A stretch of 59,226 nt of DNA. It comes from an uncultured Alphaproteobacteria bacterium (lineage in GTDB: Bacteria; Pseudomonadota; Alphaproteobacteria; SHNJ01). How positions within the stretch are numbered: the first letter of the stretch is position 1; the number at the start of each line of letters is the position of its first letter. The notes under the pieces are model-generated. The model did no database searches and was not told the DNA's origin. It saw nothing but the letters and a program-made list of their open reading frames with translations. Below are positions 327-51,504 of the stretch, one piece after another. The DNA lies in NCBI GenBank assembly GCA_964458615.1, contig CAYWJR010000002.1:19071-78296 (forward strand), given 5' to 3'. The position numbers and the translations under genes were made by a program.

Positions 327-382
327 ACAACCTTAAGATGCAAATTATAATATCGCACAATCGCACATCGAACGGGAAAATC

Positions 383-5613: not shown

Positions 5614-5795
5614 CTTGTGCGCCAGGTTACAAGGATATTTTGACACATAACACAAATGCATAACACGGCAAATCATAAAAATTTATGCAAAACAACAAAC
5701 AAAATTTCTTTAGAAGAATAAATAATAAAGGCAGAATTGCATTTTCGGGCTATATTCAATCCAGTTAATTTATGCGCAATCAGACCGAGGTCTTG

Positions 5796-9906: not shown

Positions 9907-9968
9907 GACAAGAGAAAGTCAAATGACAGGAAGCCAAGCTTATAAAAAAGGCTATAATGAGGTAAATT

Positions 9969-21170: not shown

Positions 21171-21182
21171 TTTGTTTCTCCA

Positions 21183-22871: not shown

Positions 22872-23076
22872 TATTTCTTCTCCGTTTCCCCGCATCAACT
22901 ATATCAATAATATCCTAAAAGCTTATGATTTATGTCCGGCATTTGAATTGAAATGCTTTGATGCAAGACAGTCATGTATCTTTATTGTATACGATATTTG
23001 ATGGTGATTGGGGTCAATTATCAAATTAATGTGATAATTTACGATTACGAAAAAATATATTTAATTCAAATGCATA

Positions 23077-32178: not shown

Positions 32179-34038
32179 ATGAGTGCGGATTTAATCCTGA
32201 GCGTACAAAACGCATCCATCCGGTTCGGCAAAAACATCTTGTTCGAAGATTTGACGTTTCACATCAACCGGCGCGATAAAATATGTCTGGTCGGTAAAAA
32301 CGGCACCGGCAAGACCACGTTGATGAATATTATCACCAACAGCATCGAATTGGACGGCGGCGAACGTTGGATTTATCAAGGCACCAGCATCGGATACCTG
32401 CAACAGGAAATTTTGCCCAAGGCCGGCCAGACAGTAAAAGAATTTTTGTTCGAACAATTGCCCGCCGATCAACAAACGCCTGAAAATAGTTACAAGGTGG
32501 AAATGGTCGCCGATAAACTGCAATTGGAAATCGGCGCGAAAGTGGAAAAATTATCCGGCGGTCAAATACGCCGCGCCGCGCTGGCGCGCGCGTTGATCGA
32601 AGAACCGGACATATTGCTGCTGGACGAACCGACCAACCATTTGGATTTGGGCGCGATCGAATGGTTGGAACAATATCTTAAAAATTACCGTGGCGCGTTG
32701 ATATGCGTCAGTCACGATAAGAAATTTCTGGCCAATGTTTCGGATCGCGTATTCTGGCTGGATCGCGGCAAATTGAAATTCAGCCCGCGCGGATTCGAAC
32801 ATTTCGACGAATGGTCGGAAATGTTGTTGGAACAAGAAGAACGCGAATTGGCCAATCGGCAAAAGATATTGGATCAAGAAATCGCCAAGGCTAGCCGCGG
32901 GGTGCGCGCGCGGCGCAAACGGAATGTACGGCGTTTGGAATCCATCAAATTGGAACAAGAACGGTTGAAACGCGATAAAAACGCATTGAATCGCATGTTG
33001 GCGAAAATAGAATTCGAAGAAATGGAAATCGAAGGAACATCGAAAAATGTCGCGGAGTTTTTTAACGTGCATAAAAAATTCACCGACTCCGACGGTGAAA
33101 AAACCATATTGAACAAATTCAGCCTGCGCATTCAACGCGGCGACCGTATCGGAATTTTGGGAAAAAACGGATCCGGCAAAACCACTTTCTTGCAATTGCT
33201 GACCGGCGAAATTGCGCCCGACATGGGCAAAGTAAAATTGGCCAAAGACATCGAATTTTCTTACTTTGACCAAAAGCGCCGTGATTTAAATCACCAAGCC
33301 ACATTATGGGGCACGTTATGCCCCAATGGCGGCGACCACATCAATGTAATGGGAAAACCCCGGCATGTTTATGGATATTTAAAAGATTTCTTGTTCGACC
33401 CCGCGATGGCGTTGCAATTGGTCGGCACGTTGTCGGGCGGGCAAAAAAACCGCCTGATGCTGGCCAAAGTTTTGGCAAACCCGAAAAGTTTCCTGATTCT
33501 GGATGAGCCCACAAACGATTTAGACATGGACACGTTGGACATGTTGGAAGAAATATTGGCGAATTACCAAGGCACATTGGTGGTTGTCAGCCATGATCGC
33601 GATTTTTTGGATCAGACCGTTACCAAGATATTGGCGTTCGAAGGCAATGGGATCGTCGAAGGATATATCGGCGGATACACCGATTATTTGAACAAACGCG
33701 CCGAACAAAACATTAAAACCAAACCTGTGCCTGCGGACAAATCAAAATCCCCCGCCCCTGCGAAATCAATTGCGCCGCAACCGGCCGCTCGGCAAAAAAT
33801 GTCGTATAAATTGATTTATGAATTGCAGCAATTGCCGAAAATTATAGAAAAATTGGAACAAGACATCGTATCGTTGCAAAATCAAATCCAAAATTACGAT
33901 TCCGCAACCACAAGCCAGCAAGAATTCGCCGATTTAACCAAACGCCTTGGCGACGCGACCCAGCAATTGGAACAAGCCGAAGAACGTTGGGTTGAATTAG
34001 AAGATATGCGCGCGGCAAACGAAGCGGTTACCAATTAA
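32179..34038 (+). CDS. uup: ABC-F family ATPase, Uup-like
   Basis: Two NBDs (GKNGTGKT, GKNGSGKT, LSGGQ, LDEPTN.LD), KG..ARRKRN.RR linker, C-terminal K.SYK...EL..LP..IE.LE...RW.ELE. Confidence 0.85.
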   Translation: MSADLILSVQNASIRFGKNILFEDLTFHINRRDKICLVGKNGTGKTTLMNIITNSIELDGGERWIYQGTSIGYLQQEILPKAGQTVKEFLFEQLPADQQTPENSYKVEMVADKLQLEIGAKVEKLSGGQIRRAALARALIEEPDILLLDEPTNHLDLGAIEWLEQYLKNYRGALICVSHDKKFLANVSDRVFWLDRGKLKFSPRGFEHFDEWSEMLLEQEERELANRQKILDQEIAKASRGVRARRKRNVRRLESIKLEQERLKRDKNALNRMLAKIEFEEMEIEGTSKNVAEFFNVHKKFTDSDGEKTILNKFSLRIQRGDRIGILGKNGSGKTTFLQLLTGEIAPDMGKVKLAKDIEFSYFDQKRRDLNHQATLWGTLCPNGGDHINVMGKPRHVYGYLKDFLFDPAMALQLVGTLSGGQKNRLMLAKVLANPKSFLILDEPTNDLDMDTLDMLEEILANYQGTLVVVSHDRDFLDQTVTKILAFEGNGIVEGYIGGYTDYLNKRAEQNIKTKPVPADKSKSPAPAKSIAPQPAARQKMSYKLIYELQQLPKIIEKLEQDIVSLQNQIQNYDSATTSQQEFADLTKRLGDATQQLEQAEERWVELEDMRAANEAVTN

Positions 34039-34987
34039 GATCCGGTTTGATCGCAACGAACGCGGTGACTTGATTGCCTTGTTCGTTGTATCCCAAATTG
34101 TCGAAACTGATCAAATTGGCCAATGCGATGCCGCGGCCATGATGTTCGCCCGCGCGCGATAAACTTAGGCGCAAATGGCTGCGCCAATCGAATCCCGCGC
34201 CTTGATCTTTGATGCTGACATAACATCCTTTGGCGGTGCGCTGGAAAATCGCTTGTATGTTCTTCGTTTTGTTTTCAGGCAGATTCAACCTGGCTTGAAT
34301 TTCATATTGCCAGCGGTCTTCTTGCAACAATTGTTTTTTCCTTTCGTAACCGATTCCTAAATTCCCGTGTTCGATTGCATTGGTCATCAATTCCGTTATC
34401 CCGATCAAAACGCGCTGTGGATTTGGAAAAAAACTGGCGATTACGCATGCCACATCCTCGGCTTGTTCCAATGTAGACAATGAAAAACTGCATGTTTCGA
34501 TCATATCGAAACTGGCGCGCTGGCGGCGCCAGGCTTCGGAAATGTTATTTTGCCGCTGCGCATCTTGCAATACCGTATCGATGACCGTATGCAACAAACC
34601 TTGCGCTACCGGCTTGGTCAAATAGTATATAATGCCCGCGTCCATCGCCGATTGAACCTGATTCGCATCGATCATCGCGATAATCGGCGTATATCCGCCC
34701 ACACCGCCTTTGGATGTTTCCTTGATCCAGCGCAAGGCCGCATCGTCGGCATACGCCCAATTGATAATGATCGCGTCAAACCCACCTTTCATGCCTGAAA
34801 TTACTTCATCGGCTTCGGCAATATTCGCGGCCGTGGTCGCCGAAAAACCAATAGCGCGTACATAATCCGCCACCTGATTCATGGAACTGGCGTCTTGTTC
34901 GACAATCAAAACTTTTGCATGCTGCACCAGACGCAAAGAAGACATTTCATAATTTTGTTTGCGTATAGAATTGGTTTGATTAGACAT
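34028..34987 (-). CDS. Pseudo-receiver + anti-sigma-type HATPase_c protein
   Basis: REC fold (VLIVEQD...DAIIINW...YYLTKP) plus GITELMTNAIEHGNL..., DQGAGFDW, HGRGIA, YN..GN.V; AGGAGA RBS before ATG 34987. Confidence 0.8.
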   Translation of the reverse strand: MSNQTNSIRKQNYEMSSLRLVQHAKVLIVEQDASSMNQVADYVRAIGFSATTAANIAEADEVISGMKGGFDAIIINWAYADDAALRWIKETSKGGVGGYTPIIAMIDANQVQSAMDAGIIYYLTKPVAQGLLHTVIDTVLQDAQRQNNISEAWRRQRASFDMIETCSFSLSTLEQAEDVACVIASFFPNPQRVLIGITELMTNAIEHGNLGIGYERKKQLLQEDRWQYEIQARLNLPENKTKNIQAIFQRTAKGCYVSIKDQGAGFDWRSHLRLSLSRAGEHHGRGIALANLISFDNLGYNEQGNQVTAFVAIKPDLNW

Positions 34988-35008
34988 TGAATTCTCCTGT
35001 TTCATCGA

Positions 35009-36370
35009 TTACCGCTCGGTAAAAGCGTTTTTAATCGTCGCCTGGATCGGTTTTAACAAATAGCCGAGGATAGTTTTTTCACCGGTGATAATATCGGCCT
35101 CTACCGTCATGCCGGGCAGAATGACATTGTGTCCGGGCACGGATCCCATGTGATTTTTGCTTAATAATACGCGGCCACGGTAAAATTTCTGTCCCTGATC
35201 GTCGGTGAATGTTGTCGCGGAAACCAGATCCAATTTCCCATCCAACATGCCATACCGCGCATAATCGAACGAGCTGACCTTGATTTTCACCGGCTGATCT
35301 TTGATGACGTGGCCTATATCTTGCGGCTGAATCTTGACTTCCGCCACCAAATCGTTGTCCAACGGCACGATTTCAAGCAATGTTTGCCCCGGTTGCACGA
35401 CGCCACCGATTGTATTGATATGCAGGCCTTTTACCAACCCGTCGACCGGCGCGCGGACTTCCAATCTTGCGACTTTGTCTTGCAATTTTTTGATCAACTG
35501 TTCGTTTTGCGCCATTTGCGATTCGACTGCATCGATTTGTTGATATGCCTGGTCGCGGTATTTTGCATCAAGCGAAGATAAACGCTCTTGATACTCGCTG
35601 ATGCCTTTTTGCGCTTGCTGCAATTCGCTCTTTAAACTTTGCCATTCACCTTGCGACCGGTTCATATTGCGGTTTTGTTCCATCATTTGCGCCTTTGACA
35701 GCAACCCTTCGGCCAGCATTTTTTTATACATCTGATTTTCTTCGCGCATGATGTCGTTGTTCGCGCCGCTCGCCGCGGCTTGGCTGTGCAACATATTGTA
35801 ACTGTCGCGTTTTTGTTCCAATTGTTTTTGCAAAACTTCTTGCTCGCTCGCGCGCGCCTTGATCATACTAAGATATATATCTTGCTGTTTCGCCACCATG
35901 GCCGGGGTATCCGCGAACGGGGCGAAATTCGGATTGCGTCCTTCGACGAATGCGTGCAACCGTTCGTTTTGCAATTCGAACGCGCGTTGTTTCGCGATAG
36001 ATTCCGCTAAATCCTGTTCGGCGCCGTTGCCGTCAAGCCGCAATAAAACTTGGTTCTTTTTTACCAAATTTCGCTCGCTGACCAATATTTCCCTTACGAT
36101 GCCGCCTTCTAAATGCTGTACTAACTGACTGAAACCTTTTGGCACGATTTCGCCATATGTGCGCGCGACTTCCCCTACTTTGGCGAATGCCGCCCAAACC
36201 GTCAACATTAACAAACAAGCCGCAATAGTCGTCGCGGTCCAGCGGATAATCACCGGATTTTGCGCTTCTTCCAATAAAATGGATTGCGACAAGAATTTCA
36301 ATTGTTTCTGCCGATTGCGGTATTTGAAATATCCGGCCGGTTTTTCGGTTGGGAATGTTTGTGTGATCAT
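35009..36370 (-). CDS. HlyD-family type I secretion periplasmic adaptor
   Basis: Single TM, GEIVP.G..Q.VQHLEGGIV, long coiled coil, RAPVDG.VK.L...T.GGVV.PG, K.SSFDYARYG, PGMTV.ADI.TG.KT...YL.KP. Confidence 0.95.
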   Translation of the reverse strand: MITQTFPTEKPAGYFKYRNRQKQLKFLSQSILLEEAQNPVIIRWTATTIAACLLMLTVWAAFAKVGEVARTYGEIVPKGFSQLVQHLEGGIVREILVSERNLVKKNQVLLRLDGNGAEQDLAESIAKQRAFELQNERLHAFVEGRNPNFAPFADTPAMVAKQQDIYLSMIKARASEQEVLQKQLEQKRDSYNMLHSQAAASGANNDIMREENQMYKKMLAEGLLSKAQMMEQNRNMNRSQGEWQSLKSELQQAQKGISEYQERLSSLDAKYRDQAYQQIDAVESQMAQNEQLIKKLQDKVARLEVRAPVDGLVKGLHINTIGGVVQPGQTLLEIVPLDNDLVAEVKIQPQDIGHVIKDQPVKIKVSSFDYARYGMLDGKLDLVSATTFTDDQGQKFYRGRVLLSKNHMGSVPGHNVILPGMTVEADIITGEKTILGYLLKPIQATIKNAFTER

Positions 36371-38583
36371 AAATTGTCTCCACTATTTTGCAGTTGCTGT
36401 AAAATCGCCGATGGGTTTCCGAACAATGGTATTTTCCCCGCGCGCAAGCCCAAAACCGCATCCGATTGGCGGATAAAATCTTCGCGGTGCGTAACCATAA
36501 TTATGGTTTTTTGACCGCGATAGGCATGAATCATCTGATGGATTTTTTTTCCGCTGTGGCCGTTTAACAATGCAGTCGGCAATTCATCCATCAACAATAT
36601 CGGCGTATCTTGCAACAATGCGCGCGCCAGATTCAGTTTGTATGCGAAACTGCCGCCCATATGGCCGATCGACTGGCCGGAAATCGGCGTGTCGATCCCA
36701 AGCGGCATCGCCGACATTTCAACGCCTGCATCAACCAAATCCATCACCTGCAGCAAACGGGCGCGTTCGGCCAATGGCGCGACCAGCCGCAAATTATCGG
36801 CAATCGTTCCATTGAAAAATTCCGGATGCTGGCTGACATAGGCGATATGGCGATGCAACGCGCCAGGTTCAATTTGCCTTATATCGATTCCATCGATCCG
36901 GATCGTGCCCGCCTGTGGGCGATACATGCCGTTGGCCAATTTCAATACCGTGCTTTTGCCCGATCCGTTCGATCCCGCAACGGCCAATATTTGTCCGGGC
37001 GCGATTTTAAAAGACAGCCCCGCGAATACCGGATCGCTGCTTTTACTATACCTCAAACCGACATATGAAAATTCAATTTGCCCCTTGATCCTGTGCGCGA
37101 TTTTTCCTGTGGCATCTTCTTCTTTTTGCGCTGCCATAGTCATCAATCGGTTGACCTGGCCGATTACGTGACGCAATTGTTCTATGCGCGGCAAAGACGT
37201 GCACAAAGTCGATATTGGCGACAAAGCGCGCCAGGTTAAAATCATCGTTGCAATCAATGCCCCGGTTGTTATTTCACCCGCAACAACCTTGCCGACGCCC
37301 AAATACAACGTCGCCAATCCCGCCAACACGTAAAAACTATATGCGATAGTTTCCAGAACCGTATTGCGGTGTGCATAATCGAATGCGGCGTATGCCGTTC
37401 TTCCCGACAAATCGTGAAACCGGCCATGCCATTGGCCGCACAATCCAGTGTATCGCAAGGCTTCGGATTTATCGAATGCTTCCAATGTCGATTGTTGCAA
37501 TTGCGATCCTGTTTTCGCGGCGTGATAAGCGGAAATTTTCAACGAACCGTAGAAATAATATAAAATCGCCAGATAAAATCCGGCCATTACGATGCTGACC
37601 AACGCCAAATTGCCCGCAATCGCCCAAATCGCCAAAACCAGCAACGCGACATACGGCACATCCATTAACGATAAAAACACCGAACCGCCGAAAAAATCGC
37701 GGATGGTTTCAAAACTTTTAATCCGCGCCAATTGCGATGCAACCGACGCGCGTTCAATCAATTGCGACGGCAATTGCAGTAAATGTCGGAATATTTCGTT
37801 GCCGACCATGTTGTCGATACGGGACCCAAGCCAAGTGAATTGCAATGCGCGCATGTGGCGCAACAATGCCTCGCCGACAATCGCGGCCGCCAATCCGACC
37901 GCCATCATCGGCAATGTTGCTATGGATTGCGATCCTATCACTTTGTCGTAAACAATCATCATTAACAACGGCAACATCAATGTAATGACATTGATCAGAA
38001 AACTTGTGAAAACCACTTGTTTTATAATCGGTTTCAACCGGCGCAACACGATTCTAAACCAACTTTTTCCGCTGGCTTTTTGATCGGTTGCGATACGTTG
38101 CATAACGTCGGATTTAGATTTATGAAAAACATAAGCAGTGCCACGCAATTTGCGCCACGCGGCGAAATTCAAATCCAATGTTTGGGCGCCATCGAAAACT
38201 ATATTGCGCCCGTCTTTTTCCTGCCAAACCAAGAATATCGCCGCATCGTCATTCGGCACGAACAAGACCGGATACAAACGCGGATCCATAAAATCCATTC
38301 TGGTTTTAAATTGCCGGACTTCGTAACCCAAATTGGCCATGGTGTTTTGAATATCCAGAACCGTAAAATTATCCCGGTGGCGTGGCAAGGCATCGCATAT
38401 ATCGGCCAATTCATGGCGATGCGGCAAGACACCGATCAATTTTGTAAAAATTTCCGCCTGAATATTTACGGCATTGCCTAAAAAACCCGCTTGATGCAGT
38501 ACACGGCTGTCAAACTGGGATTTGGCGAAACCGGCCGATACGACCGTGTCCATAGGTTCTATGGCATTTTCTATTGCGCTCAC
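36367..38583 (-). CDS. Type I secretion ABC transporter (C39-like N-domain; intact Walker A/B)
   Basis: S..IN...L..PL.MM.VYDKV, TMD, GSNGSGKST, LLMDEL, VTHR; signature degenerate (MGGSF). Confidence 0.9.
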   Translation of the reverse strand: MSAIENAIEPMDTVVSAGFAKSQFDSRVLHQAGFLGNAVNIQAEIFTKLIGVLPHRHELADICDALPRHRDNFTVLDIQNTMANLGYEVRQFKTRMDFMDPRLYPVLFVPNDDAAIFLVWQEKDGRNIVFDGAQTLDLNFAAWRKLRGTAYVFHKSKSDVMQRIATDQKASGKSWFRIVLRRLKPIIKQVVFTSFLINVITLMLPLLMMIVYDKVIGSQSIATLPMMAVGLAAAIVGEALLRHMRALQFTWLGSRIDNMVGNEIFRHLLQLPSQLIERASVASQLARIKSFETIRDFFGGSVFLSLMDVPYVALLVLAIWAIAGNLALVSIVMAGFYLAILYYFYGSLKISAYHAAKTGSQLQQSTLEAFDKSEALRYTGLCGQWHGRFHDLSGRTAYAAFDYAHRNTVLETIAYSFYVLAGLATLYLGVGKVVAGEITTGALIATMILTWRALSPISTLCTSLPRIEQLRHVIGQVNRLMTMAAQKEEDATGKIAHRIKGQIEFSYVGLRYSKSSDPVFAGLSFKIAPGQILAVAGSNGSGKSTVLKLANGMYRPQAGTIRIDGIDIRQIEPGALHRHIAYVSQHPEFFNGTIADNLRLVAPLAERARLLQVMDLVDAGVEMSAMPLGIDTPISGQSIGHMGGSFAYKLNLARALLQDTPILLMDELPTALLNGHSGKKIHQMIHAYRGQKTIIMVTHREDFIRQSDAVLGLRAGKIPLFGNPSAILQQLQNSGDNL

Positions 38584-40337
38584 TATACCATCTCCATTAT
38601 CGCGAAATTGTTTGCTTTGGCTTGCTTTGGGGTTTCGGGCTCGGCGGAAATACCGTTTTCGTTCAAAACAAATTTTTGTTCCGCAAGGCTTAGAATATTC
38701 TGATCTTCGGTTACCAAAACCAATGTCGCCTTGCCTTTTAACCGTCCCATCAAACGATACAGCAAGTTATATCCGTCTTTGTCCAAATCGCGGTCTGCGT
38801 TATTGAATAAAATCAATTTCGGTTTGTGCGCTATCGAACGCGCGATTGCGATGCGTTGTTTCAATCCCGGCGGAATGGGATCGGCTACAATATCTTCCAA
38901 GACCGTTTCCATTCCGTTCGGCAATTTCGCGATTTCGGTATCGATACCCAGCAATTCCGATATTTCACGCACGGTTTCAGGATCTATCCGTCCAAAATGG
39001 CTTAGATTGTCGTAAATTGTTCCTTGGAAAATAACGCCGCGCATCGGCAAATACGCGCAATGGCGGATGCGTTCGTCATGCGGATAATCCCGCACATCCA
39101 ATCCGTTCAATTTCGCCTGGCCGGCAGAAGGAACCAGCAGACCCGCCATGATCCGCAACAATGACGTTTTAGATTCTTCGTTTTTTCCGGATATGGCGAT
39201 ACATTGGCCGGGGAATAATTGCAAACTGACATGTCGCAAATTGTTCGAAGAACTGTCCGGATCGATATATGCAATGCCGTTCAATTCCAAATGGCCTTCG
39301 TTTTGCGGATATGATTGCCTGTACGCGGGCTCTTCGGCAGCATTTTTGAAAAAATCATCCAGTTTTTCCTGGGCTGATTTAAAATCCTGATATCGCAACC
39401 ACAAACCGAACGATCTTTGAATCGGCTGTAAAATCCGCCCCGCCAACAATATGCAGGCGATCAGACTGCCCATGCTGAAATATTTGGCGACCACCATTGG
39501 TGCGCCGAATATTACGATGCAAGCCACCATAATTTGCCCATATACTTGGGCATCGTTGACGGCTTCGGCCGATAATTTGGTTAAATTATAATTGCAGCGG
39601 CTGGAATTTGATTGCAAAGCCTCGTATTGACGCACGAATCCAGCCTCCAGCCCAAGCGATTTTGTGGTGTGGATTCCGCCCAAGACATCAATCAGGAAAT
39701 CGTATTTTTGATCGTCCGCTTGATCCCGTTCTTTTAATGCTTGTTGCGTGTAACGGCCACAAACATAGGCGCGCAGCCCGAAAAAAAATAAAATCGTAAT
39801 CGGAACCAAAACCAATGATCCGGCAAGATAATAAATCAACCCTAAAAAAACCATGGCAAACGGCAAATCGATCATGCTGGCCAGGGCTTGGCCGGAATAA
39901 AATTCGCGCAATTTTCCGATTGCCGTCAATTTCTGCAATTGAGTTCCCAAATTGGCGGCATTTTTTTTGCTGCATCCGCCCGATAAAATATGTTTGACCG
40001 CTTTGTTATAAATCCGGTGTTCAATCGCCGCACCAACCCAGCCGGACACATAAGACCTGGCGATTTGAAGCAAAGATTCCATAGCCAAGGCGACAACCAC
40101 GCCCAAGGCCAGCATGTTTAACGTGCTGATCCCGTTTTTGGCGATGATGCGGTCATAAACTTGCAACGATGCAATCGGCAATGCCAGCGATAAAACATTG
40201 ATCGCTAAACTTGCCAGAATTACGTAAATCGGGCTGTAATCGATTTTAATGTCCGAAAACCAATGCGATTGATTGGCGGGCGATAAAATCTGCCTGTGGC
40301 GGAAACCACGTCCGCCGCCTAATGCGTTGTCAAACAT
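38583..40337 (-). CDS. Type I secretion ABC transporter with degenerate NBD
   Basis: SLAINVLSLALP...LQVYDRI, TMD; Walker A GKNEESKT, signature IPPGLKQR, Walker B LILFNN, switch VTED. Confidence 0.88.
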   Translation of the reverse strand: MFDNALGGGRGFRHRQILSPANQSHWFSDIKIDYSPIYVILASLAINVLSLALPIASLQVYDRIIAKNGISTLNMLALGVVVALAMESLLQIARSYVSGWVGAAIEHRIYNKAVKHILSGGCSKKNAANLGTQLQKLTAIGKLREFYSGQALASMIDLPFAMVFLGLIYYLAGSLVLVPITILFFFGLRAYVCGRYTQQALKERDQADDQKYDFLIDVLGGIHTTKSLGLEAGFVRQYEALQSNSSRCNYNLTKLSAEAVNDAQVYGQIMVACIVIFGAPMVVAKYFSMGSLIACILLAGRILQPIQRSFGLWLRYQDFKSAQEKLDDFFKNAAEEPAYRQSYPQNEGHLELNGIAYIDPDSSSNNLRHVSLQLFPGQCIAISGKNEESKTSLLRIMAGLLVPSAGQAKLNGLDVRDYPHDERIRHCAYLPMRGVIFQGTIYDNLSHFGRIDPETVREISELLGIDTEIAKLPNGMETVLEDIVADPIPPGLKQRIAIARSIAHKPKLILFNNADRDLDKDGYNLLYRLMGRLKGKATLVLVTEDQNILSLAEQKFVLNENGISAEPETPKQAKANNFAIMEMV

Positions 40338-40360
40338 AATTCGCTCCGGAAACTAGATGA

Positions 40361-42532
40361 TTAAAACAGGAACCCTTTGTGTGAATTAGAAGAAGACCCC
40401 CCGCCCAGGCCCAACCCGCCAAAGCTGTTCAATACCGCCGGCGCGACGGCGGCTACGGTATTTGAAACTATATTCACAGTATTGGTAACGGCCTGCGTTG
40501 TGACATGGGTTGTTTGCGTAACCCAATTGTCGGCCGTATTGCTTGGCGGCGCCGATAACACATCGCCTGCGTATTCCGGCAATGGACTTGCCAAAATGTG
40601 ATCCAACCCTGATGCCGCATCCATAACCAGATCGGCCGCACCATTCAATATTTGATCCAACGACATACCGCCGCCCATTCCAGAATCGCAATCATCGGTG
40701 TCGGTTCCAAAACTGATAAGGTGCAATAATGATTCGCCCGTATCCACGGCATCCATGCAATCATTCGACAATGCATTTTCCGCTGCATCCGCCAACGAAT
40801 CGATTGCACCCATAGGCAATGCGCAACCCGCCGATTCGATAATGTTTTCAGCCATATTTTGGGTGACATCCGCCGTGTGTGTTGCCAAACCGCCCACGAT
40901 TTCCGGAACGATTACCAATATATCGCTGACAACGGATCCCGAATTATCCGCCAAGTTTTCAACCGGTTCCGAAACACATTCCACCGTCTGCAATACTGCG
41001 CATGGAATATCGGCCACCTGTTCGGCGGTTGTATCCAGTATCGTTGCGGCAATACCGACAACAGGCTCGATAATTTCTTCTGCGATTCCGCCAATTGCGC
41101 CGACAACGTCGCAAGGCGATGCGCAATCGTCCGCGCCGCCATTCAACAATCCGGCAATCGATTCCACCTGCAATGGCAATGAACCTATATCAAGGCCAAT
41201 ATTCAATATTTCGCCTTCGGCCAGATTCGTATCAATTTGAATTATTCCGGCGACATCCGCATTAAGGGTTAAATTATCGCCTGCTTGAATATCCAAATCG
41301 ATCGCGATATTCGGCAATTCGGGCAAAACCGATTCCGGCAGAATCGCATCTATGGCGACTTGCGCCGAAATACCATCTTGTGCATTCATATCAACGGCGA
41401 TTTCCGCATCAACCGAAACATTGGTGTCGCCCAATACCGGCAATCCCAAATCCGTTGCGATATTTGTGTCAAGATCGACAGCGATTTCCGGTAATTCGCC
41501 GTTTTCCGCAACAATTCCGATTTCCGCGTCCACGTCAATTGCGGCCTGCAAATCAACCGGCACAACCGGCAAGTCCGTATCTAAGGCCAACTGAACATCC
41601 GCATCCACCGCGATCTGCAATGGTTCACAAAATCCGCCGGTGATGCAAATATCCAAATTTTCTTGTACATCCAGTTGAACAATGTCCGCGATGTTCGCCG
41701 CCAATTCCGTGTCAGCGGAAATATCCAAATGAATCGAATCGCAATTCAGATCCAAACAAACATCGACATCCGTTTGAACATCAAGTTCCACCAAAGGCAA
41801 ACAAATCGCCACGTCTAAATCCAAATCGATATGGATCTCAATACCGCAATCGCCGCCGCCATGACAATCATCGCCGCCACAAGGTGGATCCGTTGGTGGC
41901 GGACCGGGAGGCGGATTTGGACCCGGCGGTGGATTTGGACCAGGAGGAAGATTCGGTCCTGGCGGCGGATTTGGGCCCGGTGTTGGATTATTGGGGTTTG
42001 TATTGACCGGCGGTTTGTTTGGTTCCGGCGTATCAACAACCGTTTTAACGACGATAGGCGTTATCAAAATAGAATCATCGTGTGAATTGATGGAATCTAT
42101 TTTCTGTAAATCAGGGCTTTCCGATAATTGCAACGCGGCTGCCGCAGGTTGAACGAATTCTGCCGCTGGCGAAAGGGTTAAATTATTCAAAATTACCGGC
42201 ATCGGTTTTTCCGTCATAACGTTCGATGCGGTTAAAACAAGATTGTCCACCCCTGATATCGATTGGATTAAAACACCATCGGTATTCAATGGCGAATCTT
42301 GGCTGGCGGCTTGGTCATGCTTTTCGTCCCCAGAATCTTTTGAAGGCTGCAACACCTTATAGGCGGCACGCAGGCTGATGATGGACATATCGTCGGCAAT
42401 CGCGCCTTCATAGGCCTGAAACATATCTTCTTTCAGGTCCTGCTGATAAACATTTTGCAACACCGTCATTTGATCCAGGCTTATTCTTGGCTGGTCGTAT
42501 GTGACGGTAATGTTTTGCGTTGATTCTGCCAT
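40361..42532 (-). CDS. Large acidic Cys-rich protein, probable T1SS substrate (unknown family)
   Basis: First gene of the T1SS run; no Sec signal; Pro-rich linker, alternating hydrophobic/Asp region, acidic helical region, C-terminal GGLGLGGGSSSNSHKGFLF. Confidence 0.75.
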   Translation of the reverse strand: MAESTQNITVTYDQPRISLDQMTVLQNVYQQDLKEDMFQAYEGAIADDMSIISLRAAYKVLQPSKDSGDEKHDQAASQDSPLNTDGVLIQSISGVDNLVLTASNVMTEKPMPVILNNLTLSPAAEFVQPAAAALQLSESPDLQKIDSINSHDDSILITPIVVKTVVDTPEPNKPPVNTNPNNPTPGPNPPPGPNLPPGPNPPPGPNPPPGPPPTDPPCGGDDCHGGGDCGIEIHIDLDLDVAICLPLVELDVQTDVDVCLDLNCDSIHLDISADTELAANIADIVQLDVQENLDICITGGFCEPLQIAVDADVQLALDTDLPVVPVDLQAAIDVDAEIGIVAENGELPEIAVDLDTNIATDLGLPVLGDTNVSVDAEIAVDMNAQDGISAQVAIDAILPESVLPELPNIAIDLDIQAGDNLTLNADVAGIIQIDTNLAEGEILNIGLDIGSLPLQVESIAGLLNGGADDCASPCDVVGAIGGIAEEIIEPVVGIAATILDTTAEQVADIPCAVLQTVECVSEPVENLADNSGSVVSDILVIVPEIVGGLATHTADVTQNMAENIIESAGCALPMGAIDSLADAAENALSNDCMDAVDTGESLLHLISFGTDTDDCDSGMGGGMSLDQILNGAADLVMDAASGLDHILASPLPEYAGDVLSAPPSNTADNWVTQTTHVTTQAVTNTVNIVSNTVAAVAPAVLNSFGGLGLGGGSSSNSHKGFLF
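41884..41995 (-). repeat. Coding 18-bp PNPPPG repeats (~5 copies)
   Basis: NPTPG PNPPPG PNLPPG PNPPPG PNPPPG PPPTDPP. Confidence 0.9.
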
Positions 42533-42572
42533 CTGTTGCCCCCGTTTATTATTCGATCTTAGACAGACAAAT

Positions 42573-42587
42573 TTAACAAACTCCTAA
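42573..42587. promoter_or_regulatory. CtrA-like box (1 mismatch)
   Basis: TTAA-CAAACTC-CTAA in the divergent promoter between the T1SS substrate gene and the pilus chaperone. Confidence 0.3.
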
Positions 42588-42717
42588 ATCGCGGCAAATT
42601 TGATACAATTTTTGGTTGAAATATTTTAATTCATACAATCATGTGCGGATGCCAATACGATTGTAAGTTATTTTGTGCATAGTCGTATGCGAAATATTTT
42701 TATGACAAGGCAAGAAA

Positions 42718-43401
42718 ATGCAAATCTATAAATATATAATAATATTAATTGTAATTATGGCCGCGCCCGCGATTGCCCGCGCCGAATTTATTATCAACAA
42801 CGCAATCATCGAATTCTTACCCGGAGCGGAGGCGCAACAAGACATAGAATTGGCCAGCAAATCCGACAAAAACGATTATATCGATACAGAGATCAATGAG
42901 ATTATCAATCCTGGATCGGATCAAGAAACAAGACGTAAATTAAAAAACGCCGCGAATGAATCGATACTGGTCACCCCGAATAAAACAGTTTTGACCGCAG
43001 GCAGCCGAAAAATTTTACGATTTATTTTATTGCAACCGCATGGCGACCATGAACGAATTTACCGCGTCGCCGTAAAACCGGTTGTCAATGAACTGGAACA
43101 CATTGAAAAAGTGGGTTTAAAAATATTGATTGGATATGAAATATTGGTAATCGTCCGCCCGAACGAAATTAAATCGGCGTACAATGCCAAACGCAACGGC
43201 AAAATAATTTCAATTCATAATACCGGCAACAGTAGCGTTTTATTTCAAGCCAGCCAGCAATGCATTAAAAAGAACGACTGTAAAATGCCGCCCAGCATCC
43301 GGGCATATGCCGGACAACACACCCAAGTCGAACTGCCATTCGACGCGCCCGCCATTTATAACGTCTGGGACGGTGTAAAATCCAGCCAAGTTAATTTTTA
43401 A
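42718..43401 (+). CDS. Fimbrial periplasmic chaperone (alternate/CfaA-EcpB-like)
   Basis: Signal peptide ...APAIARA; LVTPNK..L.AG....LR, ERIYRV.VKPV, IL.GYEILVIVRP, NTGN.SV, C....C. Confidence 0.8.
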   Translation: MQIYKYIIILIVIMAAPAIARAEFIINNAIIEFLPGAEAQQDIELASKSDKNDYIDTEINEIINPGSDQETRRKLKNAANESILVTPNKTVLTAGSRKILRFILLQPHGDHERIYRVAVKPVVNELEHIEKVGLKILIGYEILVIVRPNEIKSAYNAKRNGKIISIHNTGNSSVLFQASQQCIKKNDCKMPPSIRAYAGQHTQVELPFDAPAIYNVWDGVKSSQVNF

Positions 43402-45850
43402 TGCCAACCGTAACGCAAGGCAACGGCGAATCATATATCATCACCCCATTGACTAGACGCCCAGTATCCGGCATTTCCACCTGGCATTCCTGTCCACCTG
43501 CGCTTTTTGTGGACCCACGCTGTTTTGTTCTAAATTTAATTTTTCCGCGCCTGTTCAGCTCGGCTTGGATATAACCGTCTTCATCCGTCATCGCAGGGGT
43601 TTTAATATCCAGCAACTCTGCGCCGGTTAATGGCGCACCAGAATCGTCGATTATTTTACCGGTCATGACATAAAATTTGTCAACTTGCCATTTCAAGTGC
43701 GTTACGTTCCCAGGATACAATGTCACTTTTTGTGCGCTTGTATCATAATCGAACAAACCTTTTTTAGACGGCGATATTCTGATTTTATATGTTTGGTATG
43801 GGGGCAAATATAATACTTGCGATTTACCAACTTTGACCAAACTGCGTTCCGCATTGCCCACAAATATTTTCATATCCGTGTCCGCATCGCCTTCGGTGTC
43901 TATTACCACCGCGCTTTTATCGTTTTGATCGCCACCCAAATAAATGCCGTTTTCCAACATCGCCATATTGATTGCGAAACCGCCGCTGTAATTCAAAATC
44001 GATTCCTCGCCACCGAACGATTGTTGCACCGAACCGCGAAACCGCCCGATACGATTACGCCAGTCCGCATCGGCGTTGACGATTTTATTGCTGCGGTCAA
44101 CCCCAAACCCGGCGCCTACAGACAGCGCCTTGTGGGGCTTTACGTCGTCGTGCCAAACGCGCATGTTTCCTTGAATATCTTGTCTGCCGTCGCGCAAATT
44201 CGAACCTATATTTCCTGAAACGCCATATTGTCCGATAGTGTAGGTCAAATTAAACAACAAACTGCCTTCGTAATCGCCGCTTGATTTGGCAAAATCGGCG
44301 GTGGCCGAAAAACGGCTTTCTTGTTCTTGCCATATATTCCACTGCGCATATGGGCCTATCGAAAATATTTCCGGCGCGGATGCGGTTTCGGTGTAATTGC
44401 CGCGTATGCCGGCGGTTATATCCGCAGTTACCTGATAACTGGTGCTGGCGGTAAATTGGGTCAAATCATCCAATAACTGATCGTACCGTTGCAATTTCTT
44501 GCTTCCCGCCCAGATTTTGCGCAGATCGATATTGCCGCTCCACATTTCATCGAAATACAGAATACTTCCTTGCAAACCGAAATCCATTTCGGTCGATACA
44601 ATATTCGTTGCCCGCAATTGCAAATTCGAATCGATCATAAAAACTGAATTTTCTACCGCCAAACGATCGCCCAGCACCACCGCACCTGAACTCAGCGCAA
44701 TCTGGTCGTCCATGCGCGAAACGATACCTGCGCGCAATATCATATCTTTGGTAATTTCCGGCAATGCCGAATCGTCCGCCGCCGATTGACGCAAAAATCC
44801 CGCTTGTAAGAAATACGATGGATCGTCTGCCGGGGGTATGTCCTGGTTTTTAGCGAAAAAACGGTTTTCCTCGCGCTCTGCCCCGTCCGATTCCTGAATT
44901 TTCAAAATAATCGGATACGCGCCTTCGGGTAAATCGGATGTATCGATTTTTTGATTGCCGGCCTCGTATGGGCGCGAAGAATATAACCGTCCTTCACGGT
45001 ATATCGACACGAATGACCGGCGCGGCAAGTACAATATTATATCGTTTCCTGAAATTTTCCGCGCATCCAGTTTGGTTTTATTCGATATCGCAAAATATAT
45101 TCCGGCCATATCCTTGTCGCTGGCCAACTGCATCGGCTGGCTTCGAAACAGTCCGCCGCCCATATCAAATCCATTTTTCTCGACACCGAACTGCGCCGCA
45201 TCGAACCGCAATCCATCGTTCGATACGGTCGATTGGGAAACAAATCGTTTTTCGCCAAATGCATAAACCGCATTGTTGCTAAGTGCAAAATTGGGGTCTT
45301 GTTGCGACGATCCCGAAACCGCTCCATTCCAGCCATACACGGATGAAAATTTTTGTTCCGGAAGGGGCAAATATTTTTCCTGCATATTGTCCGAAAGATC
45401 CAGATAATCTTTATGAATGAATATTTCCGAGCTTAAATTATTTTCATCGAATACAACATCAACCGATTCAGTATCTATCTTACCGCAATCGTGCACGGCT
45501 TGCTGGCGGCATATTTTTGATGCGTTGATGGGCAATGGCTCCTGCATTCTTGCCAATAAAGACGTGGTATTTTTTAGATTCGGTATTTGGCGCAAAATAT
45601 CTTGCGGATTTTCAAACCGTATATATCCGGGCGTGGAATAAGCCGGGAATTTACCGATTGTGTCGCCGCCATATTGCACACCAACCATCAACAAACGGGG
45701 TTGATCCAAATCTTCGAATCCTTTCGGGGTTCCGGGTTTCTCGGTAATTGCGGCAAAACATGGATGCGCGGCCGGGATTACAGCCAGCATTACTATAATG
45801 CATGACCGCGCCATGGCGGATTTACAGCGTGATCCAATAATAGAAAACAT
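43391..45850 (-). CDS. Fimbrial usher (TcfC/CooC/EcpC-like)
   Basis: Signal peptide; P.GFEDL.QP, V.F.E..L...I, SFVSIYREGRL.SSR.Y.AGNQ.IDTS.LPEG.Y.I.LKI.E..G, YLPPY.TY, TLYPGNV, TDEDGY.Q.E, terminal Cys pair. Confidence 0.88.
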   Translation of the reverse strand: MFSIIGSRCKSAMARSCIIVMLAVIPAAHPCFAAITEKPGTPKGFEDLDQPRLLMVGVQYGGDTIGKFPAYSTPGYIRFENPQDILRQIPNLKNTTSLLARMQEPLPINASKICRQQAVHDCGKIDTESVDVVFDENNLSSEIFIHKDYLDLSDNMQEKYLPLPEQKFSSVYGWNGAVSGSSQQDPNFALSNNAVYAFGEKRFVSQSTVSNDGLRFDAAQFGVEKNGFDMGGGLFRSQPMQLASDKDMAGIYFAISNKTKLDARKISGNDIILYLPRRSFVSIYREGRLYSSRPYEAGNQKIDTSDLPEGAYPIILKIQESDGAEREENRFFAKNQDIPPADDPSYFLQAGFLRQSAADDSALPEITKDMILRAGIVSRMDDQIALSSGAVVLGDRLAVENSVFMIDSNLQLRATNIVSTEMDFGLQGSILYFDEMWSGNIDLRKIWAGSKKLQRYDQLLDDLTQFTASTSYQVTADITAGIRGNYTETASAPEIFSIGPYAQWNIWQEQESRFSATADFAKSSGDYEGSLLFNLTYTIGQYGVSGNIGSNLRDGRQDIQGNMRVWHDDVKPHKALSVGAGFGVDRSNKIVNADADWRNRIGRFRGSVQQSFGGEESILNYSGGFAINMAMLENGIYLGGDQNDKSAVVIDTEGDADTDMKIFVGNAERSLVKVGKSQVLYLPPYQTYKIRISPSKKGLFDYDTSAQKVTLYPGNVTHLKWQVDKFYVMTGKIIDDSGAPLTGAELLDIKTPAMTDEDGYIQAELNRRGKIKFRTKQRGSTKSAGGQECQVEMPDTGRLVNGVMIYDSPLPCVTVGIKN

Positions 45851-45896
45851 AAATTAAGGACTAAAACGTAGGTTTATTGACTGAACTAAGAAACGA

Positions 45897-46388
45897 TTAG
45901 GAAGGGGTTAGCAATAATGTGATTGTGCCGGTATAGGTTCCCGATAATGCGGATTCCATACTGGATTGAGTGATAGACAAATTTAAACGCGCATTCGGAC
46001 CAAGCAGGGTGCAAGAATTATCAAGGATGTTGCCGCGCAACTGTCCGGTCAGCGTCACGCCATTGGTCAATGGCGATCCTGGTTCGGAACCAAGATTTCC
46101 AGCTCCGGAATCGTCCCATCTGAGCGAATATGGAATATTGCCGCTGCCGTTTGTCAGGAAAAAACCGCCTGGGCTGCTGATATTGATTGCATACCCGCCC
46201 AAGGGCGCGAGGTTGTTTGTGTATATGCAAATATCCATAGACGCCGACACATTCGATTGCCCCATGCTCCATGTCGGTAAATTAAAATCGCTTATATTAC
46301 TGATTCGCATCGCAAACAAAGCATGCGCCCTGCCAGCAGGCAGAACGCACAAACACATCGCAATCAGGACAATGCAAATTCTTTGCAT
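45897..46388 (-). CDS. Putative minor pilin (paralog of the upstream pilin)
   Basis: ATG 46388 after AGGA RBS; signal peptide; ISNISDFNLPTW, CIYT, C....NARL, YTGTITLLLTPS. Confidence 0.75.
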   Translation of the reverse strand: MQRICIVLIAMCLCVLPAGRAHALFAMRISNISDFNLPTWSMGQSNVSASMDICIYTNNLAPLGGYAINISSPGGFFLTNGSGNIPYSLRWDDSGAGNLGSEPGSPLTNGVTLTGQLRGNILDNSCTLLGPNARLNLSITQSSMESALSGTYTGTITLLLTPS

Positions 46389-46396
46389 CTCAATTC

Positions 46397-46969
46397 CTAA
46401 AACGGCGTAATTAACATAGTCAAAGTCCCCGTGTATGGCGTGGAACTGGATGCGGCGGAATTCATATTCCCGGATGTGATGCCTACAATCACGCGCGCGG
46501 TATCGTTGCCCGATCCGCCGCCGGAACATGTGGCGCTGGTGGTGCTGGCGTTGGAAAACGATGCCGATTGAATATTGGTTGTCAGCGCAGTGCCGGTATT
46601 GGCCAAATTACCCGCGCCGCCGGAATTCCATGTTACTGTGTAAGCAATCAAATTAAGTCCGCTGGCAATAGTGAACGCATTCACAAGCCCGCTGCCGGTC
46701 GCAGTGACTTTGTAACTGCCGGTCGATGAATAAACGCAAACGTTGCTGTACAATGTAACGTCGCCGTCGCCCACACTCCAATTCGCTAATGTCATATCGC
46801 TGATATCGCTTATTTGAGCCTGAACGGATTTTGTGATGCTGATATTCGCGCTGCCGGTCGATGTCGCGCCCAACGATCCTTGGGTTGCCGCATTTGCGCC
46901 TGTTGTAACAAGAATGATCATCGCTACAACCATCGGAAAACGAATTGATGCAACTAAATGCTGAAACAT
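46397..46969 (-). CDS. Putative major pilin
   Basis: Signal peptide ...GANA; ATQGSLGATSTGS, ISDISDMTLANW, CVYS, C.....NDTARV, YTGTLTMLITPF. Confidence 0.8.
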   Translation of the reverse strand: MFQHLVASIRFPMVVAMIILVTTGANAATQGSLGATSTGSANISITKSVQAQISDISDMTLANWSVGDGDVTLYSNVCVYSSTGSYKVTATGSGLVNAFTIASGLNLIAYTVTWNSGGAGNLANTGTALTTNIQSASFSNASTTSATCSGGGSGNDTARVIVGITSGNMNSAASSSTPYTGTLTMLITPF

Positions 46970-47034: not shown

Positions 47035-47049
47035 TTAAATATGTGTTAC
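47035..47049. promoter_or_regulatory. CtrA-like box (1 mismatch) upstream of the pilin
   Basis: TTAA-ATATGTG-TTAC. Confidence 0.3.
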
Positions 47050-47185
47050 TTGCAAAATCGGTATGCCGCCATACGATACGATGCATCGATTCGCGTTTTG
47101 CAAACAATCCAATTATTTATGATTGACGGGATTGCGCCGGTATGTTCGCAATTGATTTATTTTTTTCCGCGATTTATATTATCGT

Positions 47186-50430: not shown

Positions 50431-51504
50431 ATGACCAAACATAAAAAGAAAATATTGATGCTTGGCTTTGGCGGCACATTGACCATGGCGCCGAATAAAA
50501 CCGGCGCGCTGGCGCCAACCAAATCCATTCAAGATATTTTAAAACTGGTTCCGTCATTGCAAAAAATGGCGCGCATCCACGCGGTCGAAGTCGAAAATTT
50601 AGACAGCACCAATGTAAACCCGTCGCATTGGACGAAATTGATTCACATTATCGCGAAACATCACGACAAATATGACGGCATCATCATAACCCACGGTACC
50701 GACACCATGGCTTATACCGCAAGCGCGGTTACGCTGGGTTTAGGCGCTGGGTTAAAAATACCGATCGTTTTCACCGGCGCGCAAAAATCGTTGTTCGAAT
50801 CGGGCAGCGATGCACGGTTCAATTTGGAAAATTCGATCAAAACAGTCGTCGCCGCATCGAATCAAAAAATAGCCGAAGTAATGATCGTATTTGGCGAACG
50901 TGTCATGCGCGCCTGCCGAGCAATCAAAACCAGCGAAGCGCGATTTCCCGCGTTCGATTCGCCGGCGTTTCAACATCTGGCGTCGATTACCGCCAACGGC
51001 ATCGATTTCGTTCCAAACGTCCGCAAGAAATCGCACAGCAGAACGTCGTTGAAAATAAAACCCGAATTCGAACGCGGCATCGTGCCGATCGATTTGGTTC
51101 CGGGATTGGAACCGCAAATATTGCTGGATTTTCTGAAAGTCAGCCGTTGCCGCGGCATATTGTTAAAATCGATGGGATCCGGCAACGTCCCCAACCGCGA
51201 CGAATATTCTTTGATACCCAGCATACGAACCATCGTCAATCAATTCGGCATTCCGGTTTTGGTATCGACCAAATTTGTCGGCGGCCACACGCACATGGAC
51301 ATGTATGAGCCGGGCAAAGAAGCATTGGACGCAGGCGCGATACCCACCGGTGATATGACCGACGTCATGGCGCAAATCAAATTCATGTGGGCGTTGGCCC
51401 AAGGGTATAACAGCCCTAAATCGCTGCGCAAAATCATGCAAACGAATTTGGTCGGCGAAATCACCGCATCCAAATCCAAAAATTTTTCTAAAACGAAAAA
51501 CTAA
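50431..51504 (+). CDS. ansA: Type I (cytoplasmic) L-asparaginase
   Basis: GGTLTM, NLDS.N, HGTDTMAYTAS, TGAQ, R..K..., G.GN.P, DMT. Confidence 0.9.
   Translation: MTKHKKKILMLGFGGTLTMAPNKTGALAPTKSIQDILKLVPSLQKMARIHAVEVENLDSTNVNPSHWTKLIHIIAKHHDKYDGIIITHGTDTMAYTASAVTLGLGAGLKIPIVFTGAQKSLFESGSDARFNLENSIKTVVAASNQKIAEVMIVFGERVMRACRAIKTSEARFPAFDSPAFQHLASITANGIDFVPNVRKKSHSRTSLKIKPEFERGIVPIDLVPGLEPQILLDFLKVSRCRGILLKSMGSGNVPNRDEYSLIPSIRTIVNQFGIPVLVSTKFVGGHTHMDMYEPGKEALDAGAIPTGDMTDVMAQIKFMWALAQGYNSPKSLRKIMQTNLVGEITASKSKNFSKTKN

Follow-up and report, generated by a model that had tools for sequence, protein, structure and literature searches.

A predicted type I secretion cassette with two dissimilar ABC half-transporters and a polyanionic, non-RTX cargo in uncultured Proteobacteria

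Type I secretion systems (T1SS) fall into classes in which ATP-binding cassette (ABC) transporters with an N-terminal domain pair with RTX cargo and those without this domain pair with small non-RTX cargo (PMC8277102). In heterodimeric ABC exporters, one ATP site is consensus and the other degenerate, a principle reviewed in the same paper (PMC8277102). Here we analysed a 59,226-nt stretch of DNA from an uncultured alphaproteobacterium (contig CAYWJR010000002.1; the whole stretch is called the window), in which positions 34028-42532 of the minus strand carry five genes in the order cargo, ABC1, ABC2, HlyD adaptor and receiver/anti-sigma-like protein. This segment is probably a self-contained cassette for type I secretion, whose genes are inherited together vertically and which exports the cargo that it encodes; the chaperone-usher pilus block beside it is probably independent.

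Several described systems resemble the cassette in part. The haemolysin system of E. coli (HlyB-HlyD-TolC, with RTX cargo) has the same ABC superfamily and an HlyD adaptor, a large acidic cargo encoded in the operon and a channel encoded elsewhere; however, the cassette has two distinct ABC proteins instead of one homodimer, with one degenerate ATP site, its cargo carries a conserved N-terminal box (N-box) and no RTX nonapeptides, and an anti-sigma-like regulator is encoded in the operon. Two distinct ABC proteins with one adaptor also occur in the MARTX systems of Vibrio (RtxB/RtxD/RtxE), but the cargo there is a giant RTX toxin, and neither an N-box cargo nor a receiver/anti-sigma gene is present; we know of no report of a catalytically dead MARTX ABC protein. 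The heterodimers TM287/288, TmrAB and TAP1/2 share with the cassette a subunit without catalytic Glu and H-loop His and a partner with a deviant signature, the two ABC genes of the cassette being adjacent and translationally coupled; those transporters, however, are not T1SS and have no adaptor, and in the cassette the signature that faces the consensus site (IPPGLKQR) is unusual as well. Strongly acidic T1SS cargo, repeat-rich or of low complexity, is represented by the Ehrlichia tandem-repeat proteins and by Caulobacter RsaA, the latter with a functional N-terminal region and a C-terminal signal. These systems use a single ABC protein and show no N-box or GGLFG tail, and no sequence relationship of the cargo to the Ehrlichia tandem-repeat proteins or RsaA was detected.

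The five cassette genes are co-oriented open reading frames (ORFs) of 723, 584, 738, 453 and 325 aa (Table 1), with junctions of +23, -1, -4 and +3 nt in order. The last junction becomes +21 nt if the receiver protein starts at 34987, as placed by the gene callers on identical contigs, which gives 319 aa instead of the 325-aa ORF from 35005. The start of ABC2 overlaps the stop of ABC1 by 1 nt, which fits equimolar synthesis of the two proteins, and the start of the adaptor overlaps the stop of ABC2 by 4 nt. An earlier note on this DNA, hereafter the original prediction, had proposed that a non-RTX T1SS operon is dedicated to an acidic cargo encoded within it and includes a regulator of the partner-switching type, and this part is supported: all nine genes that it described (five T1SS, four pilus) were found, the ORF map bears out its gaps of about -4 to 23 nt, and the gene products have the expected character, namely an acidic, Cys-rich first protein (pI about 4.05, 15 Cys), a degenerate first ABC protein with non-catalytic motifs in its nucleotide-binding domain (NBD), an HlyD protein encoded by the fourth gene that scores above the curated TIGR01843 cutoff, and a fifth protein combining Response_reg and HATPase_c_2 with Asn at the phospho-acceptor Asp.

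Neighbourhoods fetched through the receiver/ATPase protein gave 88 loci, including 80 GTDB species-representative loci and three homologue contigs from metagenomes or metagenome-assembled genomes (MAGs), and the window proteins were compared by BLASTP with the six-frame ORFs of all of them. Three metagenome contigs (L001-L003) are identical to the window region, and L004 is its nearest relative. The order ABC1-ABC2-HlyD-receiver protein was found in about 60 of the 80 GTDB loci, plus the metagenome loci. The hosts are Micavibrio and other alphaproteobacterial MAGs, some of them labelled Rickettsiales, MAGs labelled Bdellovibrionales or Pseudobdellovibrionaceae, and further Methyloligellaceae, Asticcacaulis, Desulfobulbus, Desulfocapsa, Desulfogranum and gammaproteobacterial MAGs. 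Identity to the window proteins is 35-50% across loci and 51-73% in L004; the best GTDB relatives of the window receiver protein reach only 36-39%. Inter-locus distances are correlated across all five components (Spearman 0.70-0.80), which indicates that the cassette diverges as a unit. Scans of metagenome contigs with the usher and with an HlyD alignment both yielded no confirmed loci, so that this sublineage is known from the window copies and L004 only.

No description of the cassette was found in Pfam, in NCBIfam or in full-text searches, which covered open-access papers and bioRxiv only, so that absence is not proof; the T1SS cluster treated in the genome paper on Micavibrio ARL-13 is another one, and the cassette is not described there. 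The statement in the original prediction that no described system with such a substrate was known holds within the same sources. The five-gene cassette is widespread in uncultured Proteobacteria and apparently undescribed.

Both ABC proteins contain ABC_membrane and ABC_tran (Pfam), and the best NCBIfam matches of both are T1SS permease/ATPase models, that of ABC1 being TIGR03375. The window ABC1 has the Walker A motif GKNEESKT, a Walker B motif without the catalytic Glu (LILFNNAD), Glu in place of the H-loop His, and the signature IPPGLKQR. Over 51 orthologues, the Walker B motif reads LFDNAD, in which Asn stands for the catalytic Glu, the H-loop has Asp or Glu where His is expected, and the signature IPPGLKQR shows strong conservation; the family consensus has a canonical Walker A, which is degenerate in the window and in L004. 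In the window ABC2, Walker A (GSNGSGKST), Walker B (ILLMDE) and the H-loop (VTHR) are canonical and the signature (MGGSFAYK) is deviant, and over 54 orthologues Walker A and Walker B (D-E) are canonical. At the level of genes this is the picture of a heterodimer with a degenerate site: the two half-transporter genes are adjacent and distinct, the product of one has neither catalytic Glu nor H-loop His, and that of the other has a deviant signature. We infer that the two proteins pair asymmetrically and that only one of their ATP sites is hydrolytic.

ABC2 differs from ABC1 by an extra N-terminal cytoplasmic domain (Table 1), located where the C39 domain or C39-like domain (CLD) lies in HlyB and ComA; the collinear alignment with HlyB covers HlyB 52-692, and the alignment of ABC2 to the LssB model TIGR03375 begins at model position 19. 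No conserved Cys or His was found at the catalytic positions in 31 orthologues, Pfam C39 did not match when the domain was searched alone, and the hallmark His and Trp positions of a CLD are absent. The original prediction had called this transporter C39-like: the collinearity with HlyB, ComA and LssB speaks for the label, and the missing Pfam C39 match, PDB profile match and catalytic Cys/His speak against it. We therefore describe the region as a probably non-catalytic domain in the CLD position, with a putative C39-like fold.

The HlyD adaptor is 72% identical to its L004 orthologue. By its ABC and adaptor genes, the cassette is a predicted type I secretion system. It does not belong to the RTX group, because the window cargo has no RTX repeats (no GGxGxDxUx nonapeptide at all), nor to the LssB subfamily, because both ABC proteins score below the TIGR03375 cutoff (347.2 bits for ABC1 and 437.8 for ABC2 vs 693.1), nor to the C39-peptidase exporters, because the catalytic residues are missing.

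The cargo has a net charge of about -103, with 78 Asp, and its C-terminal tail reads ...GGLGLGGGSSSNSHKGFLF. It matched no Pfam or NCBIfam family, even at E = 10, a whole-protein homology search returned nothing, and a profile search of a word-indexed database recovered only seven truncated fragments. These ordinary searches likely fail because of composition bias and divergence; therefore, an exhaustive HMMER search was used. The N-box profile then matched 211 representative clusters, 104 of them at E <= 1e-10, always at residues about 1-70. The consensus of this box, about 55 residues long, is LDxF..V..KLDADxYxAxD..[ND]M..Y.SLQA; class-1 N-boxes contain a conserved FGSGN motif, and the window N-box has no Gly-Gly. 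The 127 full-length representatives have a median length of 725 aa, with 14% Asp and 1% Lys+Arg; 96 of them end in GGLFG and 83 have no RTX nonapeptide. The Gly-hydrophobic tail, typically GGLFG and HKGFLF in the window and L004, is conserved in the family and is a candidate secretion signal. As judged from these shared sequence features, the cargo belongs to a protein family without a Pfam or NCBIfam model.

The ORF directly upstream of ABC1 is in most loci 400-1500 aa long, with 10-55% Asp and less than 3% Lys+Arg. Of the 44 loci whose upstream sequence is long enough, 30 have an N-box ORF with its end between -16 and +299 nt from the ABC1 start, and each of these loci contains only this one N-box ORF. 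Where no N-box ORF lies at ABC1, the locus is mostly from Desulfobulbaceae, or a giant ORF runs beyond the fetched DNA.

The window cargo and its L004 homologue form a divergent subgroup, both with 14-15 Cys, a Pro-rich spacer and the end HKGFLF. They are 27% identical by BLASTP, in an alignment that spans the Asp-rich body, and have the N-box and the C-terminal tail in common (by eye and with the N-box hidden Markov model, HMM). The NPPPGP spacer of the window protein, encoded by a tandem repeat (Table 1), lies between the N-terminal region and the Asp-rich body.

Elsewhere in the family, composition reaches 55% Asp in a Rickettsiales MAG and 39% in a Methyloligellaceae MAG (loci L057:2278-4380, L010:2364-5027 and L029:3-1952, including Asticcacaulis). 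In Asticcacaulis, the ORF that takes the place of the cargo gene is rich in Ala, Val and Thr, with only 2% Asp, and its last residues are HHGLWF. The Desulfobulbaceae loci L016, L019, L046, L052, L056 and L063 contain ABC1-ABC2-HlyD-receiver and have no acidic N-box ORF directly upstream of ABC1; the cargo gene of these bacteria, if any, must lie elsewhere.

For the product of the last gene, 2178 homologues were found. A profile built from 30 homologues aligns with PDB 9QIH from end to end (17-305 to 3-289), and the C-terminal domain alone matches only 9QIH among PDB entries (E 4e-11). A model built by AlphaFold2 (AF2) from the family alignment (predicted local distance difference test, pLDDT, 84) gave as its top Foldseek match the same entry, LvrC of Leptospira (E 2.6e-15), with SpoIIAB at E 5e-5; 'SenB' is merely the PDB molecule name of LvrC, to which the window protein is about 20% identical. 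LvrC is a receiver fused to a Bergerat-fold RsbW/SpoIIAB-like domain and is phosphorylated by the kinase LvrB (PMC13269768). The cassette protein shares this two-domain architecture along its whole length, and many members of its family adjoin histidine kinases; however, the window protein has lost the phospho-acceptor Asp and its gene stands last in a secretion operon. The GHKL N, G1 and G2 boxes of the protein are conserved. In the receiver, N76, Q31 and I106 (319-aa numbering) replace the Asp, Asp and Thr of the family, and Lys125 alone is kept; Asp is the consensus at 31 and 76 in at least 90% of 30 homologues. Since the closest homologues keep the acceptor Asp, the pseudo-receiver call of the original prediction is correct but lineage-specific.

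A co-oriented hybrid histidine kinase, or a response regulator with a kinase, starts at most 400 nt downstream of the receiver gene in 37 of 77 loci. In the window this kinase is missing, and a convergent ABC-F gene takes its place. No sigma factor gene lies within the cassette. On a Nitrospirales chromosome (L081:7751-10939), a distant receiver/ATPase member follows a sigma-70-family gene and a gene for a Rec-PP2C (SpoIIE) phosphatase, a neighbourhood of classic partner switching without T1SS genes. The downstream kinases and these sigma factor and phosphatase neighbours are consistent with an LvrC-type anti-sigma role.

Table 1. Positions in the window of the cassette genes, the pilus block and the elements associated with them, with the evidence for each.
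Feature	Position	Strand	Evidence
LvrC-like receiver + Bergerat-fold (RsbW/SpoIIAB-type) protein	34028..35005, probable start 34987	-	Pfam; alignment; PDB 9QIH; AF2/Foldseek
HlyD-family T1SS periplasmic adaptor, 453 aa	35009..36370	-	TIGR01843 376.1 bits vs cutoff 208.65; Pfam HlyD_3
ABC2, 738-aa half-transporter	36367..38583	-	Pfam; NCBIfam; PDB alignments; motifs over 54 orthologues
Extra ABC2 N-terminal cytoplasmic domain, about 170-175 aa, absent from ABC1	38059..38583	-	Collinear alignment with HlyB 52-415 and ComA 37-426
ABC1, 584-aa half-transporter (transmembrane domain + NBD), NBD non-catalytic	38583..40337	-	Pfam; NCBIfam; motifs over 51 orthologues
Cargo gene, 723-aa polyanionic protein	40361..42532	-	ORF; composition; identical on three metagenome contigs; L004 homologue; N-box HMM 63 bits
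18-nt tandem repeat, about 4.9 copies, encoding the NPPPGP proline-rich spacer	41901..41989	-	Tandem Repeats Finder; translation
N-box, cargo residues 13-67 (LDQMTVLQNV...DLKEDMFQAYEG...DMSIISLRAAYK)	42332..42496	-	Alignment of 25 cargo N-termini; HMM scan
Divergent intergenic region between cargo and chaperone genes, 185 nt	42533..42717	.	Sequence; one-mismatch TTAA-N7-TTAA and one TAAATCGCGGCAAA copy
PapD-like periplasmic pilus chaperone, 227 aa, TcfA-like	42718..43401	+	PapD_N 34.5 bits (cutoff 23); TcfA E 1e-11, below cutoff
Outer-membrane usher, alternate CooC/TcfC type, 819 aa	43391..45850	-	TcfC 59.5 (cutoff 29.4); CooC_C 36.3 (cutoff 29)
Pilin-like subunit 2, 163 aa, signal peptide	45897..46388	-	Gene call; 57% identical homologue in L004
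Pilin-like subunit 1, 190 aa, signal peptide, C-terminal strand YTGTLTMLITPF	46397..46969	-	ORF; 73% identical homologue in L004

Taking these features together, we propose that ABC1 and ABC2 would pair asymmetrically in the manner of TM287/288 or TmrAB, one ATP site being hydrolytic and the other degenerate, and that this heterodimer, with the adaptor and a TolC-like channel encoded elsewhere, would export the cargo unfolded and C-terminus first, the Gly-hydrophobic tail being part of the export signal. The N-box would dock the cargo to the non-catalytic N-terminal domain found only on ABC2 and would stay uncleaved. The Asp-rich body, nearly devoid of basic residues, would be disordered at the low Ca2+ of the cytoplasm and, once outside, would bind Ca2+, fold or assemble, the exported cargo forming a matrix or coat or acting like an adhesin. 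The protein encoded last may be an LvrC-type receiver-controlled anti-sigma factor that tunes transcription of the system through a sigma factor, and in about half of the related loci the neighbouring hybrid histidine kinase would phosphorylate its receiver; the window lineage has no such kinase and a pseudo-receiver, so that control there would have to be phosphorylation-independent.

The role of the N-box is the step on which readings diverge most. Docking to the ABC2 domain is the role we prefer, tentatively; anchoring of the cargo at the cell surface is possible, though we lean against it, and contact of the box with the regulator seems unlikely. Surface anchoring can be extended to a scheme in which the N-box retains the exported cargo on the cell and the cargo forms a polyanionic coat, as the N-terminal lipopolysaccharide-binding region of the Caulobacter S-layer protein RsaA and the N-terminal retention module of LapA-type adhesins do for their proteins. 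A conserved N-terminus, a hypervariable body and a conserved tail are the layout of T1SS surface proteins, whose N-terminus exits last, and neither catalytic residues nor a fold assignment tie the ABC2 domain to the N-box. A mirror-tree comparison of the N-box with the ABC2 N-domain, ABC1 and the receiver protein was likewise not discriminating (Spearman 0.70-0.80, partial 0.34-0.39), and this lack of specific co-variation suits retention too. However, the box is only about 55 residues long and AF2, at low confidence, predicts no folded plug, the cassette holds no LapG/LapD-type release genes, and retention leaves an extra cytoplasmic domain on only one ABC subunit unexplained; on balance we regard a retained coat as rather unlikely.

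That the N-box is instead a cleavable leader and the ABC2 N-terminal domain a C39 peptidase, as in export of the bacteriocin or peptidase-containing ABC transporter (PCAT) type, is very improbable. Bacteriocin and NHLP exporter models do occur among the weaker NCBIfam matches of both ABC proteins, NHLP systems likewise combine two ABC proteins with an HlyD protein, the FGSGN motif of class-1 N-boxes resembles a Gly-Gly site, and the LDQF..L segment of the box presumably resembles the helices of double-glycine leaders. The NHLP models, however, score far below their cutoffs, Pfam C39 finds no match, and the window box, lacking Gly-Gly, offers no such site. Moreover, no conserved Cys/His occupies the catalytic positions, as defined in PMC8277102, in the 31 orthologues, and the cargo is 500-1500 aa long vs about 10 kDa or less for active C39 exporters (PMC8277102).

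Returning to the docked N-box, a more elaborate scheme would have both ends of the cargo recognized: translocation would begin with the GGLFG-type tail, the N-box would be held by the ABC2 domain or by the LvrC-like protein, and occupancy would be reported to transcription through the anti-sigma factor. We offer this as a speculation with little probability. Such signalling of cargo occupancy would be akin in its logic to FlgM in flagellar export or ExsE in type III secretion; to our knowledge, export-coupled anti-sigma reporting has not been described for T1SS.

The pilus genes beside the cassette belong to an alternate chaperone-usher (CooC/TcfC) system, as TcfC, CooC_C and PapD_N all score above their Pfam cutoffs; the Pfam Usher score of the usher, 23.7, is below the cutoff of 27.1. 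The chaperone gene is convergent with the usher gene, their 3' ends overlapping by 11 nt, and two pilin-like genes precede the usher, as originally described. The two pilin-like subunits are paralogues (32% identity) without a match in Pfam, NCBIfam or PDB; gene callers on the identical contigs start the second at 46388, the 210-aa ORF being over-extended. The usher with TcfC and CooC_C and the PapD-like chaperone liken the block to the class 5 pili (CS1/CFA-I/Tcf), from which it differs in that its pilins fall outside known pilin families, no tip-adhesin gene is present, and the chaperone gene is convergent with the usher gene instead of first in the operon. The ORF map shows no adhesin-sized gene in the block, and the pairing of a CS1/CFA-I-type major pilin with a tip adhesin was not found there. 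A few kb from the block lie genes for a PleD-like Rec-Rec-GGDEF diguanylate cyclase (51501-52883, minus strand) and a stand-alone GGDEF protein (53527-54228, plus strand); the two GGDEF proteins could be cyclic di-GMP inputs to surface behaviour.

The original prediction had joined this block and the T1SS operon into one co-regulated surface-assembly system, interlocked through shared promoters and CtrA-like sites, with the polyanionic protein as a scaffold or matrix of the pilus. There are observations in favour: in the window and, despite rearrangement, in L004, the cargo gene has the pilus block as its immediate neighbour; in both arrangements a pilus gene lies across a divergent intergenic region from it; and the intergenic regions on the two sides of the block each contain a 14-nt motif. 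However, usher, chaperone or pilin homologues are confined, among the 88 loci, to L001-L003 and L004, and about 60 cassettes in other taxa have none of them within 10 kb. In the neighbourhood check proposed with the prediction, the T1SS genes and the substrate do co-occur, and co-occurrence with the usher is limited to the nearest relative. As to the outcome that the prediction had itself named as contrary, homologous operons that never meet the usher and export RTX proteins encoded elsewhere, its first part was observed, except in L004, and its second was not, 30 of 44 loci having their own N-box cargo.

The arrangement in L004 is also different. Its order is usher (-), pilin 2 (-), pilin 1 (-), cargo (+), the visible pilus genes being inverted relative to the window, so that the cargo gene faces a pilin gene, not the chaperone gene, across the divergent region; the locus ends inside the usher, for which reason no chaperone gene is visible. 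This layout is consistent with an inversion of the whole pilus block. A YdbH-like gene lies near the cassette in both the window genome and L004, and shared synteny of two related genomes is therefore enough to explain the adjacency of cassette and pilus.

The regulatory part of the proposed interlock fared no better. The 185-nt divergent region between the cargo and chaperone genes has the length and layout described, and the one-mismatch CtrA-like boxes are present at 42573-42587 and 47035-47049; however, such sites (TTAA-N7-TTAA) are not enriched in the window, with 29 found vs 41.5 +/- 7 expected from shuffles, so that co-regulation of cassette and pilus by CtrA is not borne out. A scan for promoter and terminator consensus sequences gave nothing above shuffles. 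The 14-nt motif, TAAATCGCGG[AC]AAA, has three copies in the window vs 0.35 expected (20850-20863, 42585-42598 and 47163-47176), of which two, inverted, lie in the intergenic regions on either side of the pilus block; the copy at 42585-42598 is TAAATCGCGGCAAA. It could be a regulatory or recombination site. As a proven inversion site it was rejected, L004 having no copy and only a related GCGGTAAATTT palindrome. The third copy (20850) lies inside the DUF1501 gene of a DUF1800/DUF1501 pair (19914-22898, minus strand). Weighing both sides, we consider a joint T1SS-pilus system improbable: the interlock is the weakest part of the original prediction, the link to the pilus is not supported, and the block at 42718-46969 is, by gene order and distribution, best read as an independent module that neighbours the cassette in this lineage.

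The reading that we favour, a self-contained cassette exporting its own cargo beside an independent pilus, has points against it as well. Secretion of the cargo family is a prediction from genes alone, and the single-sequence AF2 model of the cargo (pLDDT 36) is unusable; the 15 Cys of the window protein are atypical for T1SS cargo. No TolC/OEP gene occurs among the window ORFs of at least 150 aa, as the original prediction had stated, and no TolC gene was found in the annotated flanks of L004-L007. The degenerate Walker A of the window ABC1, together with the two unusual signatures, means that the activity of even the consensus site is assumed, and a profile of the ABC2 N-terminal domain found no match among PDB sequences, which leaves a C39-like fold putative. 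As the N-box and this domain show no specific co-variation, a docking role is only proposed. Finally, both known members of the sublineage have the pilus block next to the cassette, which makes a functional link peculiar to this lineage possible.

Elsewhere in the window, positions 338-4843 encode a 1501-aa protein with Rhs repeats (RHS_repeat, DUF6531) and, after it, positions 4852-5346 a small TPR protein; the two resemble a polymorphic-toxin locus that may include an immunity or accessory gene. A conserved cluster at 7880-14201 comprises genes for an amine oxidase, DUF1365, cyclopropane-fatty-acid synthase-like, chalcone-isomerase-like, MFS, DUF3833 and SDR proteins, with a two-component pair upstream of it at 5772-7812. 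Rfam and tRNA scans of the window gave no match.

With a large, non-RTX and extremely acidic cargo family that carries an N-terminal box, the cassette contradicts the correlation between the N-terminal domain of T1SS ABC transporters and RTX cargo (PMC8277102), and it departs further from known systems in the built-in ATPase asymmetry of its ABC pair and in the anti-sigma-like regulator of its operon. It is common in Desulfobulbaceae and in lineages such as Micavibrio and Rickettsiales-like MAGs, whose members live on or inside other cells. The N-box, an Asp-rich body without Lys/Arg and the GGLFG tail together give an annotation signature that no current model captures, and experiments on the cassette would offer a handle on how T1SS recognize non-RTX cargo. 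A function assigned in one tractable carrier could extend to hundreds of unannotated proteins.

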